From: Candidatus Bipolaricaulia bacterium | GTDB taxonomy: Bacteria; Bipolaricaulota; Bipolaricaulia; JBHIAT01 | Reading direction: 5' to 3' | DNA length: 16,884 bases | Assembly: GCA_046758705.1 (NCBI GenBank) | Contig: JBHIAT010000070.1 | Span: 1 to 16,884 of the forward strand | Shown: positions 2,067 to 9,063 of the stretch, one piece after another | Layout: every line of letters starts with the position of its first letter | Numbering within the stretch: position 1 is the first letter of the stretch | Made by a program: the position numbers and the translations under genes | Notes under the pieces: generated by a model | Database searches by the model: none | Told to the model about the DNA's origin: nothing | What the model saw: the letters and a program-made list of their open reading frames with translations, nothing else

Positions 2067-2636
2067 ATGGCAAAGCTGCAGAAGAAACCGGAGCTGTTGT
2101 TGGGCAGTTCGAAACAGGTGCAGAGGATCACCCGCCGGCGGTTCTTCACCCACCTTGGTTTGGGATCGCTCACGTTGACCCTGGGGGCCGTTACAGCCGG
2201 GGGGGGCGGCCTGTTCTACCCCAAGATCACCTTTGAGTCCTCACCGGTCTTCTCCGCAGGCCAGCCCTCCGACTTTCAGATCGGAGACATCGGAGACATG
2301 GGGGACCGCCGTGTCTACATCTTCCGAGATGAATTAGGATTCCAGGCGATCTCCAATGTCTGCACTCATCTGGGCTGTAAGCCGCCGTGGAACTCTACCA
2401 GAAACCGGTTCGAATGTCCGTGTCACGGGAGCGTCTTCGCCCGGGACGGCGCTGTTATTAAGGGACCGGCGCCTCTGCCGCTGCCGTTCTTCCTGATGAC
2501 GCTGTCGGTCGACGGCCGACTGATAGTCGATAAGTCGGTCGACAAAGGCAGTTACTGGAAGGGGATCGATCACGGCATCTACCTGATCCCCGAGGGAAAG
2601 CTCGTGAACGACCGGGGGGAGCCGGTCGAGATTTAG
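2067..2636 (+). CDS. Rieske [2Fe-2S] protein, cytochrome bc/b6f (QcrA/PetC) type, with Tat-like signal anchor
   Basis: TRRRFF twin-arginine motif plus hydrophobic stretch; box I CTHLGC, box II CPCHGS; GPAPLPL. Start moved to ATG 2067 (SD AGGGAGG) because the tracked start 1923 lies upstream of P2. Confidence 0.92.
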   Translation: MAKLQKKPELLLGSSKQVQRITRRRFFTHLGLGSLTLTLGAVTAGGGGLFYPKITFESSPVFSAGQPSDFQIGDIGDMGDRRVYIFRDELGFQAISNVCTHLGCKPPWNSTRNRFECPCHGSVFARDGAVIKGPAPLPLPFFLMTLSVDGRLIVDKSVDKGSYWKGIDHGIYLIPEGKLVNDRGEPVEI

Positions 2637-2648
2637 CACAGGTCTGGT

Positions 2649-2685
2649 ACAGGAGGTTTCGTTAGAATTCTAACGGTCCGCCTGT
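2649..2685. repeat. Inverted repeat with a perfect 16-bp palindromic core (terminator-like hairpin or protein-binding site)
   Basis: CGTTAGAATTCTAACG (2660-2675) is its own reverse complement, flanked by ACAGG (2649-2653) and CCTGT (2681-2685). No U-tract follows. Confidence 0.6.
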
Positions 2686-2751
2686 GAGAAACGTTACAGC
2701 ATTCCGCCCCTCTATCCCTTATCCTTGTTGTAGCTGAAGGAGGTGTTGCTC

Positions 2752-2781
2752 ATGCGAGGTGATTGCCTTTGTCCACTCTAG
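2752..2781 (+). CDS. Putative leader peptide MRGDCLCPL (9 aa, 2 Cys)
   Basis: Perfect SD AAGGAGGT (2737-2744), 7-nt spacing, ATG CGA GGT GAT TGC CTT TGT CCA CTC TAG. Located in the leader of a sulfite-reduction operon. Confidence 0.55.
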   Translation: MRGDCLCPL

Positions 2782-2782
2782 T

Positions 2783-3002
2783 TCGGTTAAACTCGCCTTA
2801 ACCGATCTGATTTCCAGGGGTGCTGATCCCTATTTGGGAGAACTTTCCCTTTCCTATTCCCATCTTCTACTCTACGTAATTCACTGCCGTATCCGCACCT
2901 GTATCTGTACGGAGGCACTCGCCTAAGCGGGTGCCCACACTTGGATTTGGCCTTTGCCGCGATAGCGGGTTCTCCAGTTGATCTTTCGAACTCGGCGGCA
3001 AA
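2783..3002 (+). promoter_or_regulatory. Structured leader region with several stem-loops and a G-free pyrimidine-rich tract
   Basis: Stems TCGGTTAA/TTAACCGA (2783-2805), GGCACTCGC/GCGGGTGCC (2914-2935) and TTTGCCGC..CGGGTTC/GAACTCG-GCGGCAAA (2953-3002). No G between 2841 and 2875. Confidence 0.5.
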
Positions 3003-3039
3003 ATTCTACTCCTTTTATTCCTTGCAGGAGGTTATCGTG

Positions 3040-3318
3040 GTGGATCGAGAGCTCGATCTTAGCGGAGAGATCTGTCCATATACGTTTGTCAAGAGCAAAC
3101 TGGTCCTGGAGGAGCTGGAGGACGGTCAGATACTGAGGGTGTTTGTCGATTACGAACCGGCCTCACGGAGCGTCCCTCGGAGCATGACAGCCGAAGGCCA
3201 CCAGGTATTGGCGGTCGACAAAGTGGAGGACGGCTGGACCATCGTGGTCCAAAAGCGGGAGAGCGGCTTCGAGGGGACAAAGCGAATGGAGGAGGTATCC
3301 GGAAACGATGATCAGTAA
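3040..3318 (+). CDS. TusA/SirA-family sulfur carrier (sulfurtransferase)
   Basis: ELDLSGEICPYTFVKSKLVLEELEDGQILRVFVD is the TusA-fold signature with the persulfide Cys. GTG 3040 lies 7 nt after SD AGGAGGT (3026-3032); GTG 3037 is also in frame. Confidence 0.9.
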   Translation: MDRELDLSGEICPYTFVKSKLVLEELEDGQILRVFVDYEPASRSVPRSMTAEGHQVLAVDKVEDGWTIVVQKRESGFEGTKRMEEVSGNDDQ

Positions 3319-4891
3319 AGGATCGGATTGGGATCCGATCGAGACCCAGAAGGAGGTCAGGAGGTATGCGAGTCGGGGATTTGAAGCGCTCAGACGGGAG
3401 GGTGGGGAGGAGGCCTTCAACCGGGTCAAGCTGGCTGGACTCTACCCCCAGAGGCAAACGGGCTACTTCATGTTTCGAACCCGGGTGCCCGGCGGCATCC
3501 TGAAGCCCGGCCAGGCACGGGCCATCGGTGAGCTCGCCGATCGGTACGCACGTGCTCCCGACGACGAGGCGGGCGGGTTCGTGGACATCACCACCCGCCA
3601 GGACGTTCAGATGCACTGGATCAAGATCGAGAACCTCCCCCGACTGTGGGACCACTATGAGGCAGTGGGGCTGACCACGCTGCAGGCCTGCGGCAATTCA
3701 GTGCGCAACATCACCAGTTGCCCCATCGCCGGGCTGGATCGTGAAGAGCTGATCGATACGCGTCCCATCGTCCGAGAGATCACCGACTACTTCACCGGAA
3801 ACCGCCGATATGCGAACCTTCCCCGTAAGTTCAAGGTGAGCCTGACCGGCTGCCGGGAGAACTGCGCCAAGGCGGAGATCAACGACATCGGCTTCACGCC
3901 AGCGGTCCAGGGAGGGACGGTGGGATTCAACGTGCGTGTCGGCGGAGGGTTGAGCGACAGCCCGCGGATGGCCTCGGACCTCGACCTGTTCGTCCACCTA
4001 GAGCAGGTGCTCCCCCTGATCCGCGCCTGTGTCCAGTTGTTCACCGACCGGGGAAACTATCTGAACATGGCGGCTAACCGACTTCGCATCCTGGTAGGGA
4101 AGTGGAGTCCCAGGTGGTTCAGGGATGAATTGAAGAGGTACGCCGGATTTGCGTTCGAACCGGCGGGTGAGAATCGGATCGACCGGCAGCGCCTCGACCA
4201 CATGGGCGTCCACCGACAGAAACAGGCGGGGTTGAACTACGTCGGGTTGAACGTGCCGGTCGGCCGCATCCCCGGGGAAGACCTGGTGGAAATCGACCGA
4301 ATCGCCCGGAAGTACGGGAACGGCGAGATCCGATTGACCTCCGACCAAAATCTGATCATCCCGAACGTCCCCGATGATCGGCTCGAGCAACTCCTCGATG
4401 AACCCTTGCTTGAAAGCTATTGCCCTGATCCCAAGCCCTTTGCGCGGGGGGTGGTGGTCTGCCCAGGAAGCGAGTTCTGCAACTTTGGCATCATCGAGAC
4501 GAAAAACCGGGCAAAGCGGTGGGCAGAGTATCTGGATGAGCACCTTGACCTCGGCTCGGAGGTGATCCGTCTCCATCTGAGCGGATGCAAGGCGTCATGC
4601 GCCCAGCCGCAGATCGCTGACGTGGGCCTGAGGGGGGCGATTCACCGGACGATGACGGGCTCGGTGGAAGCGGTGGACGTCGGCCTCGGAGGATCGCTGG
4701 GCCGTGACGCGCGGTTCATCCGATGGGTAAAGGGATCGTCGCCTGCTGAGGAGATCCCTGAAGCGCTGAAACGGCTGGTTGAGCAATACATCGAGAGCAG
4801 GAGACCGGGAGAGCGGTTCTATCAGTTCTGCCGGCGCACGAGCATCGACCGGCTGAAGGGGATTCTCAATGGGAGGGATGATCCGGAATGA
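3308..4891 (+). CDS. Siroheme/[4Fe-4S] sulfite reductase, monomeric assimilatory (ferredoxin-NiR/SiR) type
   Basis: FMFRTRVPGG, DITTRQDVQMH, ACGNSVRNI, NLPRKFK, INDIG, PVGRI, IRLTSDQNL; cluster/siroheme ligands CPGSEFC and SGCKASC. The second Lys in LPRKFK favours sulfite over nitrite specificity. Confidence 0.9.
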   Translation: MISKGSDWDPIETQKEVRRYASRGFEALRREGGEEAFNRVKLAGLYPQRQTGYFMFRTRVPGGILKPGQARAIGELADRYARAPDDEAGGFVDITTRQDVQMHWIKIENLPRLWDHYEAVGLTTLQACGNSVRNITSCPIAGLDREELIDTRPIVREITDYFTGNRRYANLPRKFKVSLTGCRENCAKAEINDIGFTPAVQGGTVGFNVRVGGGLSDSPRMASDLDLFVHLEQVLPLIRACVQLFTDRGNYLNMAANRLRILVGKWSPRWFRDELKRYAGFAFEPAGENRIDRQRLDHMGVHRQKQAGLNYVGLNVPVGRIPGEDLVEIDRIARKYGNGEIRLTSDQNLIIPNVPDDRLEQLLDEPLLESYCPDPKPFARGVVVCPGSEFCNFGIIETKNRAKRWAEYLDEHLDLGSEVIRLHLSGCKASCAQPQIADVGLRGAIHRTMTGSVEAVDVGLGGSLGRDARFIRWVKGSSPAEEIPEALKRLVEQYIESRRPGERFYQFCRRTSIDRLKGILNGRDDPE

Positions 4892-6126
4892 TAAGCAAGT
4901 TCCAAGATATCCGGGAAGAGATCAGCGAGATCGAGGCGCTGCCCGGGAAGCGTTGGTTCAGAACCCTGGATGCCGCGGTCATTGAGGCGGATCGGTGCAT
5001 TCGGTGCGGCACCTGTGTGACAGCCTGTCCGTCGGGTTCGATCAGCATCGCCGAGGACGACCGTCCCACCCTGGTGAGGATGTGCACCGGCTGTTCGCGC
5101 TGCTGGGACTTCTGCCCACGGAGCGGACTGCGATATGAGAGCGTATGGCAGCTGATCGGGGACAGAGCCAATGCCGGAGGCCTCGGGACCGTCCAGACCG
5201 CCTACACAGCCCGGACGAAGTCGGAGCGCCTGCGGGCCAGCGCCCAAGATGGCGGTGTCATCACCACGATCCTCGAAACGCTGCTGACTGCCGAGGAGAA
5301 CGGGATCGATGGTGCCCTGATCGCGAAGCAGAGCCGCGATCGACCCTGGAAAGGGGAAGCGTTCTTGGCCACCACGGTCGAGGCGCTTCATCAGGGGGCA
5401 GGAAGCTTCTACAACCAGACGATGGCTCTTGGCTACCTTAACGAGCTCAACCGGGCCGACCTTCCCCCAGATCCCCGGATCGCGATCGTGGGCACCCCGT
5501 GTGAGATCGTGGGCATCAAGGCACTACAGCAGCACCCTTGGGAAGGATCCGCCGGGTGGCAGAAGAAGATAGACGCCGTCGTCTACACCATCGCGCTGAT
5601 GTGCACGAGAAACTTTGACTACGATCGACTGGCCTTCAAGCTCAAGCAACGGGATATCGAGCTGGAGGCGGTGGGTAAGATCGACGTTATCGAGGGGGAG
5701 CTACACCTGTACGACAAGCAGGGCGAGGTGATCCTCCAAGAGGACATCCGTCGGTTTCACGACGCCGCCCTAAGGGGATGCGACGAGTGTGGCGACTTCA
5801 CCGGGAAGGCTGCGGACATCACGGTTGGGAGCATCGGCAGCCGGACCGGTTACTCCAGTGTGCTCATCCGGACGAGCACTGGGGGGGTCGCCTGGGAAAT
5901 CGCCAAGCCTCTGCTGGACTATGGGGAGCTGGACGATCTTCAAGCCGTTGACAGGATTGAGCGGCGAAACGAAAGACGCGCGGTGCGGTTTCTCAGACGA
6001 TCGTTCGACCCCGATGCGTCACTCGATATCGGGGTCGAGGATCACCTGAAGGCCTATACCGACAGCGACAGAGGGCCCCAGCCGCTCAATCCCAACCGAG
6101 TTTATCAGTATGAGGAGGTGTGCTGA
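4888..6126 (+). CDS. Coenzyme F420 hydrogenase/dehydrogenase beta-subunit family (FrhB/FdhB/FpoF-like) protein with N-terminal 2x[4Fe-4S] domain
   Basis: CIRCGTCVTACP and CTGCSRCWDFCP ferredoxin motifs; AQDGGVIT, VGTPCEI, ALMCTRNF and GCDECGDF..ADITVGSIG FrhB motifs. ATGA overlap with the reductase stop. Confidence 0.9.
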   Translation: MISKFQDIREEISEIEALPGKRWFRTLDAAVIEADRCIRCGTCVTACPSGSISIAEDDRPTLVRMCTGCSRCWDFCPRSGLRYESVWQLIGDRANAGGLGTVQTAYTARTKSERLRASAQDGGVITTILETLLTAEENGIDGALIAKQSRDRPWKGEAFLATTVEALHQGAGSFYNQTMALGYLNELNRADLPPDPRIAIVGTPCEIVGIKALQQHPWEGSAGWQKKIDAVVYTIALMCTRNFDYDRLAFKLKQRDIELEAVGKIDVIEGELHLYDKQGEVILQEDIRRFHDAALRGCDECGDFTGKAADITVGSIGSRTGYSSVLIRTSTGGVAWEIAKPLLDYGELDDLQAVDRIERRNERRAVRFLRRSFDPDASLDIGVEDHLKAYTDSDRGPQPLNPNRVYQYEEVC

Positions 6127-6300
6127 GTGAGTCAGGAACACGAGTATCAAGAACAAGCCGAGCGGATACTCAGCAGTGTCAACTACTGCAGCGCGATCGA
6201 CATCGACCCTGCTGAATCCCTGGTGGAATGCCCTCAATGCGGTGAGCTGGCTTATGTCAAATTTTTGAACCGCTGTTTGAACTGTGATGAAACGAGCTAA
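6127..6300 (+). CDS. Small CPxCG-type zinc-finger/rubredoxin-like protein, 57 aa (not in the ORF track)
   Basis: SD GAGGAGGTG (6112-6120), GTG immediately after the upstream TGA. MSQEHEYQEQAERILSSVNYCSAIDIDPAESLVECPQCGELAYVKFLNRCLNCDETS has two CxxC pairs and fills the intergenic gap exactly. Confidence 0.75.
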   Translation: MSQEHEYQEQAERILSSVNYCSAIDIDPAESLVECPQCGELAYVKFLNRCLNCDETS

Positions 6301-7648
6301 AAAACTGGTCGTATTAGGGCTGGACGGCCTCCCCTTCTCCCTGCTGAACGAGGCGTTTGCCGCAGGAAGGCTGCCCAATCTTAAGCGGTTATCCCGGGAA
6401 GGGGTGTGGGCGCAGATGAATTCGGTGATCCCCACCGTTTCATCGGTTGCTTGGGCGACCTTTATGACCGGACAAAATCCCGCCCAACATGGCATATACG
6501 GCTTCGTGGAGCGCAGTGGACAGATGAAACGGTTCATCCCCACAGGAAGCGACATCAACGCCCAGACGCTTTGGGACCGGTTGAACCAGCTGGGAGTCAG
6601 GACCATCGTCATGAACGTTCCATTGACCTACCCGCCCAAACCGGTCAATGGAATATTGATTTCAGGGTTTCTCGGACCCAACCTTGACAGAATAACCTAT
6701 CCCCAAGAAGTGTCCATGTTACTGAAGAAGAAGGGGTATATCATCGATCCAGATCCCCGCAACGTGGTCACGGATAAAGACGGTTTTTTGAGCGAGATAT
6801 TCAAAGCGTTTCAGGCCAGAGCGGACGTCGCCCTTCACCTTTTAAGGGAAGAAGCGTGGGACTTCTTCATGTGCCACATTATGGAGACCGACCGGTTACA
6901 TCATTTCTTCTGGGACAGCAAGGACGATACGGGGGCCAAGTATCATCGTGGCTTTTGGAAGTTCTACAAGCGACTGGATGAGTTCATAGGGGGGTTGACG
7001 GCCGAGCTTCCCCAAGACACAGGATTGCTCATACTCTCTGACCATGGTTTCTGCGCGATCAAGGTAGAGGTCGACCTCAATGTCCATCTTCATCAATGTG
7101 GATTCTTAACGTTCAAAGCGTCGGCCCGCCATCTGGCTGACCTCGATCCGGGTTCCGTGGCTTATAGCCTGCCCCCGGGAAGAATCTACCTGAACTTGAA
7201 AGGGCGGGAGCAGCTGGGCTGGGTTGATCCGGACTCAGCCGATTATGAAAAATGGAGGGAAGAGATTGCCGCATCGTTGCTCGATCTTGCGGATCCAGAA
7301 AGCGGAGATAAGGTCATACAAAGGGTTCATCGCAGGGAAGCGCTCTACAAGGGTCTACATCTCAACTGGGCGGCGGATCTCATTGCCCATCCCCAGCGTG
7401 GCTATGATCTCAAGGCGGACATCCGCGCCGATGAACTTTTTAGCATCGGCCCCCGGATTGGCATGCATACGTACCGCGATGCCTGTCTGTTCATCAGGGG
7501 AGTGCAGATCGCTCCTCAAGCCCCTATCTCCATTGTCGATGTGACCCCGACGATCTTCGATCTGATGGGGCTACCTATCCCAGGAGACCTGGATGGCCGA
7601 AGTCTGCTGCCCCCATGTGAAAGCGGCAAACGCATCGGAGGATCGTAG
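6287..7648 (+). CDS. Alkaline phosphatase superfamily protein (type I phosphodiesterase/nucleotide pyrophosphatase family)
   Basis: VVLGLDG, PTVSSVAWATFMTG.NP..HGIYGF, ETDRLHH, ILSDHGF, GMH, SIVDVTPTI..DLDG. No signal peptide. ATG 6287 (GTG 6284 also in frame). Confidence 0.88.
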   Translation: MKRAKKLVVLGLDGLPFSLLNEAFAAGRLPNLKRLSREGVWAQMNSVIPTVSSVAWATFMTGQNPAQHGIYGFVERSGQMKRFIPTGSDINAQTLWDRLNQLGVRTIVMNVPLTYPPKPVNGILISGFLGPNLDRITYPQEVSMLLKKKGYIIDPDPRNVVTDKDGFLSEIFKAFQARADVALHLLREEAWDFFMCHIMETDRLHHFFWDSKDDTGAKYHRGFWKFYKRLDEFIGGLTAELPQDTGLLILSDHGFCAIKVEVDLNVHLHQCGFLTFKASARHLADLDPGSVAYSLPPGRIYLNLKGREQLGWVDPDSADYEKWREEIAASLLDLADPESGDKVIQRVHRREALYKGLHLNWAADLIAHPQRGYDLKADIRADELFSIGPRIGMHTYRDACLFIRGVQIAPQAPISIVDVTPTIFDLMGLPIPGDLDGRSLLPPCESGKRIGGS

Positions 7649-7672
7649 CCGGGCTGAAACGGAGCGAGCACC

Positions 7673-8395
7673 ATGGCAGGTATGGTCTACTTGGTGGGCG
7701 CTGGACCAGGTGATCCCGAGCTGATGACCTTGAAAGCACTCAAGGCGATCGAGGTCGCTGATGTGATCATCTACGACTCGCTTGTGGGGGCGAAGATCGT
7801 AGAGAATCTTTCTGAAGATGTCGAGTTAATCGCCTGTGGTAAGAGAGCACGCCCCAACCTAACTCAGGAATCGATCAATGAGTTGATGGCGAAGAAAGTC
7901 CGCGAAGGCAAGACGGTGGTTCGCTTGAAAGGCGGCGACCCGACCATCTTGGGCAGGCTCGGAGAGGAGATGGTGTTCTTACGGGAGCATGGTATCTCTT
8001 TCGAGGTCGTTCCAGGCATCACGTCTGCCATCGCCGCGCCGGTTGCGGCCGGCATCTCTCTGACCCACCGAGGTCTTGCCTCCAGCGTCGTCTTCCTCAC
8101 CGGCTATCAAGCCTCTGTCAGCAGTGCATTGGATTGGGAAAGCCTGGTTAAGTGCAATGGCACTTTGGTGATCCTGATGGGGGTAACCAGGTTGGAGGAG
8201 ATCACGCTGGAGTTAGTTCGGCATGGGATGAACGCAGATATGCCAGTGGCTATCGTTGAGAAGGCCATGCTGCCTGACCAGCGCGTGACCGTCGGCGAGT
8301 TGGGTACGATCGTGGAAGTTGCCAAGCTAAAGGGAGTTAGGCCTCCTGCGGTCTTGATTGTAGGTCAGGTCGTGTCCCTGGGAGTGCGGAGATAG
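7673..8395 (+). CDS. cobA: Uroporphyrinogen-III C-methyltransferase (SUMT)
   Basis: VYLVGAGPGDPELMTLKA, RLKGGDP, VVPGITSAIAAP..AGISLTHRG, LVILMG, PPAVLIVG. Confidence 0.95.
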   Translation: MAGMVYLVGAGPGDPELMTLKALKAIEVADVIIYDSLVGAKIVENLSEDVELIACGKRARPNLTQESINELMAKKVREGKTVVRLKGGDPTILGRLGEEMVFLREHGISFEVVPGITSAIAAPVAAGISLTHRGLASSVVFLTGYQASVSSALDWESLVKCNGTLVILMGVTRLEEITLELVRHGMNADMPVAIVEKAMLPDQRVTVGELGTIVEVAKLKGVRPPAVLIVGQVVSLGVRR

Positions 8396-8403
8396 ATTCT
8401 AGG

Positions 8404-9063
8404 ATGAACGGATACCGTGACAGCTACAGTTATTATCCGGTCGCCTTGAAGCTCAAGGATCGGGAGGTGGTGATCGTCGGCGGGAATGAGGAAGCGACGC
8501 GAAAGCTTCACTCGTTGCTCCCCTGCGAACCCAGGTTAACGGTGATAAGCCCTCAAGTCACCGGAGCTATTGCCCAATTGGCCAAAGCCGGCAAGTTGAG
8601 GCTGATCAAAAGGACCTATCGTCACGGTGACTTAGACGGGGCATTTATGGCCATCGTCTGCACCCCTGCCGTCAGCCAAGCACTACGAGCCGAGGCGGTG
8701 GAACGGAAGGTGTTGATTAACGTGTTGGATCAAGCTGAACTCCGTGATTACATTAACGTAGCCATGTTCTCACGGGATGGGCTCCAGATTGGGATCCACA
8801 CCTCAGGCAAGAGCGCGGCGCTCTCAAGGAGAATCAGGGAGAGGTTGGAGAGACAGCTCGGTGAGGAGTACGCCGCGCTCACCCAGTTACTGGGCGAAAT
8901 GAGACTCATCGTCAAGGGGATGATCAGGACTCCGGAACGGCGACGATCGTTTTGGCTTGGTGCTGTCAATGCCGAACTGTTGGAGAAGGTTGAGAACGGA
9001 CTCTCAATGGAGGCACTTAGGGAGGAGATACTGAGGAAGGCCAAGGGATACAGGGAAATATAG
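8404..9063 (+). CDS. Precorrin-2 dehydrogenase / sirohydrochlorin ferrochelatase (SirC/Met8p/CysG N-terminal type)
   Basis: YYPVALKL..VVIVGG....RK, LTVISP, INVLD, IGIHTSGKSAALSRRIRERLE; follows the SUMT gene. Confidence 0.88.
   Translation: MNGYRDSYSYYPVALKLKDREVVIVGGNEEATRKLHSLLPCEPRLTVISPQVTGAIAQLAKAGKLRLIKRTYRHGDLDGAFMAIVCTPAVSQALRAEAVERKVLINVLDQAELRDYINVAMFSRDGLQIGIHTSGKSAALSRRIRERLERQLGEEYAALTQLLGEMRLIVKGMIRTPERRRSFWLGAVNAELLEKVENGLSMEALREEILRKAKGYREI

Follow-up and report, generated by a model that had tools for sequence, protein, structure and literature searches.

Why does a nine-codon open reading frame (ORF) with two cysteine codons stand at the head of a sulfite reductase operon, and how could it read the supply of cysteine? 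The locus lies in the window, i.e. the whole analysed stretch of 16,884 nucleotides (nt) on contig JBHIAT010000070.1 of a Candidatus Bipolaricaulia bacterium (assembly GCA_046758705.1), and the element in question is the leader ORF MRGDCLCPL (2752–2781) that precedes the tusA-sir-frhB and siroheme genes. The source genome is a 3.7-Mb metagenome-assembled genome, and its relatives in our genome set are at class level only. An earlier note on this DNA took the ORF for a cysteine-sensing attenuator in which ribosomes stalled at the Cys codons alter leader folding or access of the termination factor Rho; its cysteine-linked short ORF very probably stands, but the hairpin and Rho stalling mechanism is not supported. 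Our results suggest, with somewhat better than even confidence, that the short ORF is the zero-frame ORF of a programmed +1 frameshift switch that would sense cysteinyl-tRNA. The elements on which this argument turns are as follows.

2737–2745, + strand: Shine–Dalgarno (SD) sequence AAGGAGGTG of the short ORF, read from the sequence and complementary to the 16S rRNA 3′ end of the same genome (GGATCACCTCCTTTCTAA)
2752–2781, + strand: zero-frame short ORF MRGDCLCPL with stop TAG, read from the sequence
2758–2772, + strand: putative frameshift cassette GGTGATTGCCTTTGT, recognized by its prfB match and its recurrence in the phylum
2758–2763, + strand: internal SD-like GGTGAT, part of the cassette
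2764–2766, + strand: spacer codon TGC, part of the cassette
2767–2770, + strand: slippery CTT_T, part of the cassette
2770–2772, + strand: candidate sensor Cys codon TGT, the A-site part of the cassette
2771–2926, + strand: +1 frame after the putative slip, 51 codons with stop TAA at 2924–2926, part of the ORF 2759–2926

Direct reading of the sequence confirms the SD AAGGAGGT at 2737–2744, the ATG at 2752 after a spacer of 6–7 nt, the stop TAG at 2779–2781 and both Cys codons (TGC at 2764 and TGT at 2770). G2745 extends the SD to a 9-nt perfect complement of the 16S 3′ end. Inside the ORF lies a 15-nt core that closely matches the recoding site of prfB, the gene for release factor 2 (RF2). In this genome, the prfB site is GGTGATCGCCTTTGA, where the zero-frame product ends with L-V-G-D-R-L before the stop and the rest of RF2 is encoded in the +1 frame. 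The window core is identical to this cassette at 13 of 15 bases, with differences in the spacer (T for C) and in the last base; more often the leader core takes a C-form, which is identical at 14 of 15 and differs in the last base only. GGTGATC is complementary to the 16S 3′ end. The prfB genes of relatives carry GG(T/G)GATCGCCTTTGA; the exact prfB 15-mer occurs in 4 of 61 relatives, one of which (G036) is not confirmed as prfB, and two genomes (G041 and G068) seem to have a prfB without this site. With the RF2 type, the window cassette shares CTT_T, a GGTGAT 3 nt upstream of it and an SD-led ATG ORF with a long +1 frame, but its A-site codon is Cys TGT and not the stop UGA read by RF2. Because of this TGT in place of UGA, the window element classifies by sequence as a variant of the RF2-type cassette rather than as a strict member. 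Judged by these matches, the leader core is the RF2 +1 frameshift cassette of the phylum with UGA replaced by Cys UGU.

The core came to light through a second, related leader of the same genome, which was found while other sulfur genes were examined. On contig C64, this paralogous leader precedes a cysM-like gene, which is followed by a SelD-related sulfur protein; its ORF (MTRGDRVCRPNSDSGPMR) and the window ORF both begin with SD and ATG and then share 16 of 20 bases. The alignment of the two leaders scores 63.5, compared with 36.8 ± 5.4 for dinucleotide shuffles, of which 0 of 500 reach the observed score. Across the phylum, the peptide motif G-D-x-(L/V/I/M)-C is found upstream of cysteine synthase-like genes at 7 of 30 loci. 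The exact 15-mer GGTGATYGCCTTTGT has 29 instances in 23 of 184 phylum genomes (a reversed-pattern control gives 1), and CTT_T is present in all 29. Twenty-five instances lie in leaders, in 20 genomes and mostly before cysteine synthase genes, and in most of these the core is read in frame by an SD–ATG short ORF of 7 to 34 codons (e.g. MAGDRLC, MKGDRLC, MRGDRLCRR and MCGDRLCRS); for some second copies in tandem pairs, our script found no SD-led start of their own. The third-codon positions of the core are invariant across the 29 instances. This lack of synonymous variation, while the flanks differ freely, points to a constraint on the RNA sequence itself.

The genes after UGU cassettes are cysK-like, tusA-sir, SelD-related, DsrE-like and others, and in one genome (G108) the A-site Cys codon is UGC. 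Recurrence of the same core before cysteine synthase or sulfur genes in 20 of 184 genomes, further supported by the paralogous leader before the cysM-like gene, makes it very likely that the short ORF is real, translated and tied to cysteine supply.

We also compared the reading frames beyond the core. In the window, the zero frame stays open for 2 codons, the +1 frame for 51 and the +2 frame for 9. The 55-residue ORF 2759–2926, of which the +1 frame is part, has 0 protein matches among 1.84 billion representatives and was rejected as a protein gene because it has no protein relatives. The +1 frame is longer than the +2 frame after the core in 23 of 26 leader instances (the 25 exact ones plus the C64 variant); it is shorter in two (L157 and L158, where the +2 frame runs into cysK), and one runs off its contig. 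At eight loci, the +1 stop falls between 14 nt before and 14 nt after the start of a cysteine synthase gene. The positions of the start codon relative to the +1 stop, with two other genes added, are listed here.

L154, L157, L158 and L160 (cysteine synthase): start codon 14 nt before the +1 stop
L152 and L155 (cysteine synthase): start codon 7 nt before the +1 stop
L161 (cysteine synthase): start codon 5 nt after the +1 stop
C64 (cysM-like): start codon 14 nt after the +1 stop, which overlaps the SD of the gene
G113 (ATP-grasp gene): start codon 20 nt before the +1 stop
G091 (DsrE-like gene): start codon 5 nt before the +1 stop

Four leaders carry two cores in tandem. Their spacings (46, 46, 49 and 34 nt) are all 1 mod 3, so that the +1 frame of the first core is the zero frame of the second. 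The cassettes within these pairs (L167/L176 in G111, L168/L177 in G112, L118/L179 in G115 and L169/L178 in G113) are identical. In G111, G112 and G115, the +1 frame of the second core is the cysK-like ORF itself (347–357 codons), and in G115 no other in-frame start is seen before the conserved cysK-like domain. To judge from the frames, these three ORFs would be reachable from an SD-led start only via two +1 slips, and two serial slips would give a steep, squared response.

The cassette was searched with a TGG or TGC ending as well. Three TGG (Trp) cassettes are led by SD and ATG, and all three stand before tryptophan genes; one TGG/TGC pattern with an arbitrary trailing base missed the known G111 site, and the counts from that pattern are no survey. 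In detail, (i) anthranilate synthase I lies in the +1 frame in G111 (L195, contig C133; Chorismate_bind, 296.8 bits), with no other start codon before the conserved part of this trpE; (ii) tryptophanyl-tRNA synthetase lies in the +1 frame in G107 (L206, contig C24; TIGR00233, 315.4 bits against a cut-off of 176.75); and (iii) the cassette in G034 (L207/L197, contig C26) precedes a TrpB-like enzyme (NF009057, 694.8 bits). The A-site codon appears to follow the pathway, i.e. TGT or TGC with cysteine genes and TGG with tryptophan genes. For the genes behind Trp cassettes, automatic annotation would probably place the start wrongly, at the GTG within the cassette. Direct reading of the sequences, with counts set against controls, underlies what is said here of the cassette, its prfB identity, the frames and the pattern across genomes. 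We rate at about even chances the wider proposal that the phylum turned the RF2 cassette into a general, modular amino-acid sensor by swapping the A-site stop for a sense codon, either Cys (cysK, sulfite reductase and sulfur-carrier genes) or Trp (trpE, trpB-like and trpS), with the enzyme made in some genomes only via the slip.

How such a switch might act on the sulfite reductase operon depends on what lies between the cassette and tusA.

2783–2805, + strand: 8-bp hairpin inside the +1 frame, the extended base of which (2780) is 7 nt past the A-site codon
2841–2875, + strand: G-free C/T tract inside the +1 frame, resembling a Rho utilization (rut) site
2914–2935, + strand: 9-bp hairpin of −18 kcal/mol found by folding, with the +1-frame stop TAA in its loop
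2941–3039, + strand: stretch before tusA that extends its frame 5′ as far as TTG 2941 (ORF 2941–3318)
3026–3318, + strand: tusA-like gene with SD AGGAGG at 3026–3031 and start GTG 3040 (Pfam TusA, 70.8 bits)

We infer that a slip occurs, that Cys-tRNA controls its rate and that it leads to operon expression along the following path. With CUU (2767–2769) in the P site, GGUGAU 3 nt upstream would pair with the 16S 3′ end, and the A site would then offer a slow codon, which is UGA in prfB and the Cys wobble codon UGU here. When Cys-tRNA is ample, UGU would be read and the ribosome would terminate at UAG 2779–2781; the remaining ∼260 nt of leader would stay untranslated, with the tusA SD sequestered (its predicted unpaired probability is 0.09, i.e. 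it is mostly paired) and a naked C-rich, G-poor tract open to Rho, and the operon would be poorly expressed. When Cys-tRNA is scarce, the A site would stay empty and the peptidyl-tRNA would slip from CUU to UUU, after which 51 codons would be translated in the +1 frame across the hairpins and the CU tract to TAA 2924–2926. This +1 translation would turn on tusA-sir-frhB and the siroheme genes by one or more of three routes: shielding from Rho, melting of leader structure, or re-initiation at TTG 2941 or at the tusA start. Re-initiation might take place at TTG 2941, 17 nt past the first base of the +1 stop, by analogy with relatives, where gene starts fall from 20 nt before to 14 nt after that stop. 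Since tusA overlaps sir and sir overlaps frhB, translational coupling could extend down the operon. The hairpin at 2783–2805 might conceivably act as a pause or stimulator element; its spacing to the cassette is not kept in the paralogous C64 leader.

Several observations weigh against a cysteine-sensing frameshift. In the C64 paralog, GTT_T stands in place of CTT_T and there is only one Cys codon; 4 of the 29 TGT instances are ordinary coding sequence reading Val-Ile-Ala-Phe, as are ∼9 of 12 matches in the TGG/TGC search; and a search of 5 additional f7-family genomes revealed no Trp-type cassette. In the window, the +1 frame includes three Cys codons of its own (2885, 2900 and 2906), which would stall ribosomes again under severe starvation, and the +1 stop lies 114 nt before the SD-led tusA start (GTG 3040). 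This coupling is looser than at the cysK genes. The leader DNA has no match in 40 relatives, in species-representative genomes or in metagenome contigs. The SBP_bac_5, methyltransferase and RimK-like genes that follow some Cys-type cassettes (see below) have no proven cysteine link; if the sensor reading is true, the SBP_bac_5, UbiE-like and RimK-like genes would be candidates for cysteine or sulfur acquisition. Finally, all genomes compared are metagenome-assembled.

Among the alternatives, the one that survives best dispenses with the frameshift and has termination lifted by ribosomes that pause at the Cys codons and thereby alter RNA folding or the access of Rho. It can draw on the Cys codons in an SD-led leader ORF ahead of a sulfite reductase operon, on the presence of a Rho gene (Rho_RNA_bind, 119.5 bits, contig C32) and a rut-like tract, on a precedent in Actinobacteria described in two sources (10.1101/834739; PMC1262725) and on Cys-rich leader ORFs in orthologous Actinomycetota operons. 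We folded the leader from 2732 with the ribosome footprint forced single-stranded at the start, Cys5, Cys7 or the stop (thermodynamic modelling only). Ribosomes at Cys5, Cys7 or the stop leave downstream pairing unchanged, and the tusA SD keeps an unpaired probability of 0.09–0.15 in all ribosome states, which argues against the earlier claim that stalling at the Cys codons alters folding. For the hairpin at 2783–2805, folding finds no competing or alternative partner, and a classical attenuator was rejected on the constrained folds, which contain no terminator/antiterminator alternative. The related claim that a stalled ribosome alters Rho access fails on distance, because the CU tract begins 60 nt beyond the reach of the 9-codon frame. 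Part of the CU tract is freed (0.48 to 0.74) only when the SD of the short ORF is occupied, and tract positions 2862–2869 are predicted to be able to pair with that SD. Pausing without a slip also leaves unexplained the invariance of the core, the prfB identity, the long +1 frames, the 1 mod 3 spacing and the Trp versions, and we regard it as unlikely.

A further alternative, which we hold to be distinctly improbable, is that no frameshift takes place because the GTG in the core starts the +1-frame ORFs (Met-Ile-Ala-Phe), with the ATG ORF as an overlapping upstream ORF that modulates them. The long ORFs of G111, G112, G115 and G107 (cysK-like, trpE and trpS) do open from the core GTG, and the ORF caller gives this GTG as their first start. 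However, no SD stands at a working distance from the GTG in the loci read, the strong SD is placed 6–8 nt from the zero-frame ATG, and the identical GTG in prfB is not a start. Initiation at the GTG would also give no reason for a pathway-matched fifth codon or for the 1 mod 3 tandem spacing.

That the core acts as a peptide, i.e. as a micropeptide or arrest peptide G-D-(R/C)-L-C, including the CxC metal-binding micropeptide that the earlier note raised, is very improbable in our view. The motif is always in the same frame from an SD-led ATG, as a peptide function would have it, but the 29 core instances show zero synonymous variation beside free flanks, the ORFs vary in length (7 to 34 codons) and are unrelated at both their N- and C-termini, and the second Cys of the window CxC is Arg in most relatives.

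Single features of the leader give little ground for distinguishing the ORF from its genomic background. The perfect 8-bp hairpin with a 7-nt loop is present at 2783–2805, with −7.4 kcal/mol alone and −9.4 when extended to 2780–2808, and it is weak (3 GC pairs and a tail with 5 U in 8). The G-free tract at 2841–2875 is likewise confirmed (35 nt; C14 T15 A6), and the 70-nt segment that starts with it (2841–2910; C25, G6) ranks, by C minus G, among the highest 0.54% of 70-nt windows. In the whole genome, AAGGAGGT occurs 279 times against 104 expected from composition, with 108 of these copies preceding ORFs of at least 60 codons and 30 preceding ORFs of fewer than 30; at least two Cys codons are found in 42 of 1013 SD-led ORFs of 4–20 codons; and G-free runs of at least 35 nt number 153, where independence would predict 16.5. 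None of these features (SD, Cys count, hairpin and G-free run) exceeds the chance level of this genome by itself, and the short ORF is set apart from chance by the conserved 15-nt core, not by these single features. The remaining alternative of a chance ORF in a leader regulated by an activator-type promoter and RNA structure, which fits these single features and a whole-leader fold z-score of only −1.44, is barely credible given the core with an in-frame SD–ATG in 20 genomes, its match to prfB and a paralogous leader alignment that beats 500 of 500 shuffles.

Two other candidates for the leader were set aside. A permissive Rfam search of 2300–3400 found no riboswitch or other family in the 400-nt spacer, and its sole match, on the opposite strand with E = 4.8, was judged to be chance. 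A role of the 5′ SD as an RNase J-type mRNA stabiliser was dropped; RNase J does not rise above the cut-off, and an RNase E/G gene is present.

Some further cassette-like sites were noted. Cys-type cassettes also stand before less obvious genes (L163 in G091:C6, L170 in G011, L172/L194, and L169 in G113), namely two SBP_bac_5 binding proteins, a UbiE-like methyltransferase and a RimK-like ATP-grasp ligase. Degenerate second cores (e.g. ..GGTTGCCTTTGTC.. or ..GGTCGTCTTTGTCC..) are seen 20–30 nt after the first cassette in L164 (G092:C9), L172 (G157), L173 (G168) and L194 (G108), and the window has a weak second-core look-alike at 2942–2960 that partly pairs with 2995–3002. Pattern matches L115, L117 and L121 were dropped as coding sequence. 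Within this genome, a scan for looser cassettes returned the window only, plus false matches, including one on contig C2 that was dropped as an ordinary ABC permease. The cysH and sat leaders on contig C15 are short and have no short ORF of note. Among other leader peptides of this genome, there are no His runs and none is convincing, and none of the Trp-, Phe-, Thr-, Ile- and Cys-rich candidate ORFs checked adjoins a cognate gene.

Upstream of the SD lies a candidate promoter.

2676–2738, + strand: promoter-like element found by nhmmer on the genome, one of a family of ∼21 copies in this genome

The family is defined by a palindrome, TGT(G/A)A-N6-T(C/T)ACA, and a −10-like hexamer ∼30 nt from the palindrome centre; the window copy has TGTGA-N6-TTACA at 2683–2698 and TATCCT at 2720–2725. 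From this geometry, the transcript is predicted to start near 2732, ∼20 nt before the ATG, so that the short ORF would be the first thing translated. The palindrome resembles CRP/FNR or NtcA sites, and some spacer bases are conserved (ATCC..GATCCCTTA). Over 75 nt, the five best copies agree to ∼80%, with the window copy noted at 2658–2741; copies occur at C12:12926, C12:20023, C22:8554, C30:2019, C30:1428, C76:15302, C56:4165, C90:10493, C126:3881, C24:11887 and other sites, each 5′ of a co-oriented gene. These genes are mixed (thioredoxin, HesB/IscA-like, peptide-binding protein, FGGY kinase and patatin), and a cyclic nucleotide (cNMP)-binding protein, also 3′ of a copy, may be the regulator itself. 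At C22:8554–8750, the ∼130 nt after the copy have long arms complementary to each other and contain no evident ORF; they may represent a small RNA or riboswitch.

Downstream of tusA, the genes that the leader would regulate are as follows, assigned with Pfam and NCBIfam.

3308–9063, + strand: whole span of the putatively regulated genes
3308–4891, + strand: sulfite reductase hemoprotein (assimilatory-type sulfite/nitrite reductase)
4888–6126, + strand: FrhB-like Fe-S subunit
6284–7648, + strand: phosphodiesterase-like gene
7673–8395, + strand: uroporphyrinogen methylase
8404–9063, + strand: siroheme synthase N-domain

No Sir turned up in the other 183 phylum genomes, and the nearest relatives of the window Sir, with 50–57% identity and each with an FrhB-like partner, belong to an Actinomycetota lineage; the best identity is 55% among species-representative genomes and 51% among metagenome contigs. 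The lack of Sir in the phylum together with its actinomycetotal relatives suggests lateral acquisition of sir-frhB (3308–6126). The leader, unlike the sir-frhB genes, is built from the phylum-typical cassette.

In this Actinomycetota lineage, the operon order is cysH-sir-frhB, and a stop-delimited frame with at least 2 Cys in its last 12 residues and a shared R-C-S motif is found in the leaders of 20 of 27 evaluable loci (18 of 25 without loci from genomes flagged as unpublished, i.e. L004/L064 from G184 and L073 from G220); by another criterion, 14 of 28 loci have such a leader, compared with 5 of 28 in a reverse-complement control. The Cys-rich frame ends ∼50 nt before cysH. This leader ORF (L062–L091 and L004) has ∼30 codons, and its Cys-rich end is centred on the invariant R-C-S. 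At L004, a TTGACG-17-TAATAT promoter lies only 7 nt before the ATG, which suggests that the mRNA is leaderless. A CofE-like (F420 ligase) gene lies just 5′ in L004; this neighbour and the FrhB-like partner are hints of an assimilatory sulfite reductase linked to F420 in the Actinomycetota lineage. The earlier note proposed looking for Cys-containing short ORFs before orthologous tusA-sir-frhB operons; the sir-frhB operons of the Actinomycetota lineage do have a Cys-rich ORF in their leaders, but it is of a different, apparently leaderless kind. Sir operons of this type are under Cys-leader control elsewhere, by a leader that is not homologous to the window ORF.

Comparison with known systems places the proposed switch next to the RF2 frameshift. 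As described in PMC5009743 and PMC3711429, prfB shares with the window an SD-led short zero frame, an internal SD-like stimulator 3 nt before CUU_U, and a slow A-site codon beyond which the +1 frame carries on. The two differ in the A site, which holds UGA in prfB but a sense codon here (Cys UGU/UGC, and Trp UGG in relatives), and in the sensed quantity, which is the release factor for the RF2 cassette and would be an aminoacyl-tRNA for the leader cassette. Also, the +1 product of prfB is a functional protein, whereas here it is a 51-codon leader ORF without relatives, and in some relatives an enzyme. PMC5009743, a 2016 review, ranks CUU_U well ahead of all other RF2 shift sites in efficiency, counts the 5′ SD as a major stimulator and states that slow ('hungry') A-site codons favour +1 shifts; of starvation-specific frameshifting at hungry codons, it says that "no examples are known". 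The hungry-codon shifts of Gallant and the yeast Ty1 site CUU_AGG_C, as covered there, have in common with the window a P-site CUU that slips +1 while awaiting a scarce tRNA. However, in Ty1 a constitutively rare tRNA sets the product ratio, and the laboratory hungry-codon shifts are errors, not regulation. Our literature searches turned up no account of a frameshift that senses cysteine or tryptophan, and the word cysteine is absent from the GeneTack survey (PMC3711429).

The mycobacterial polycysteine short ORFs of the 'Cys ribulon' (Canestrari et al., 10.1101/834739) share with the window a 5′ ORF whose Cys codons report on Cys-tRNA via the ribosome. They are leaderless, carry two or more Cys codons in a row, and work through a stalled ribosome that blocks a duplex sequestering the ribosome-binding site. 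The window ORF, in contrast, is SD-led (a strong SD 6–7 nt before the ATG, with the predicted transcript start ∼20 nt upstream), its Cys-Leu-Cys codons are not adjacent, only one Cys is conserved, a frameshift cassette is present, and our modelling shows no duplex at the ribosome-binding site that a ribosome would block. Most relatives of the window ORF have a single Cys, at the cassette site. It is the Actinomycetota cysH-sir-frhB leader that matches the mycobacterial kind described in 10.1101/834739 and PMC1262725.

With the trpL, hisL and pheL attenuators, the window shares a leader ORF that contains codons for the end-product amino acid, but folding finds no terminator/antiterminator alternative. 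With Rho-dependent control of the tna type, it shares a possible contribution of Rho via an untranslated C-rich tract; the Rho gene and the C-rich, G-poor untranslated tract would be consistent with a Rho-dependent leader, but the rut-like tract lies beyond the reach of a ribosome stalled in the zero frame. The proposed element is short (15 nt plus a start) and modular, and the A-site codon would set its specificity. For annotation, this would mean that cysK-like, trpE and trpS ORFs in some genomes are miscalled with a false GTG start in the cassette.

Release factor 2 and polyamines are known to be sensed by programmed +1 frameshifting, and leader peptides are known to report amino-acid supply through ribosome stalling. 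If the proposed reading is true, a cassette that reads aminoacyl-tRNA by frameshift would join these two textbook mechanisms. It would also be a natural case of starvation-driven frameshifting used in regulation, and would answer a recoding question that PMC5009743 leaves open.

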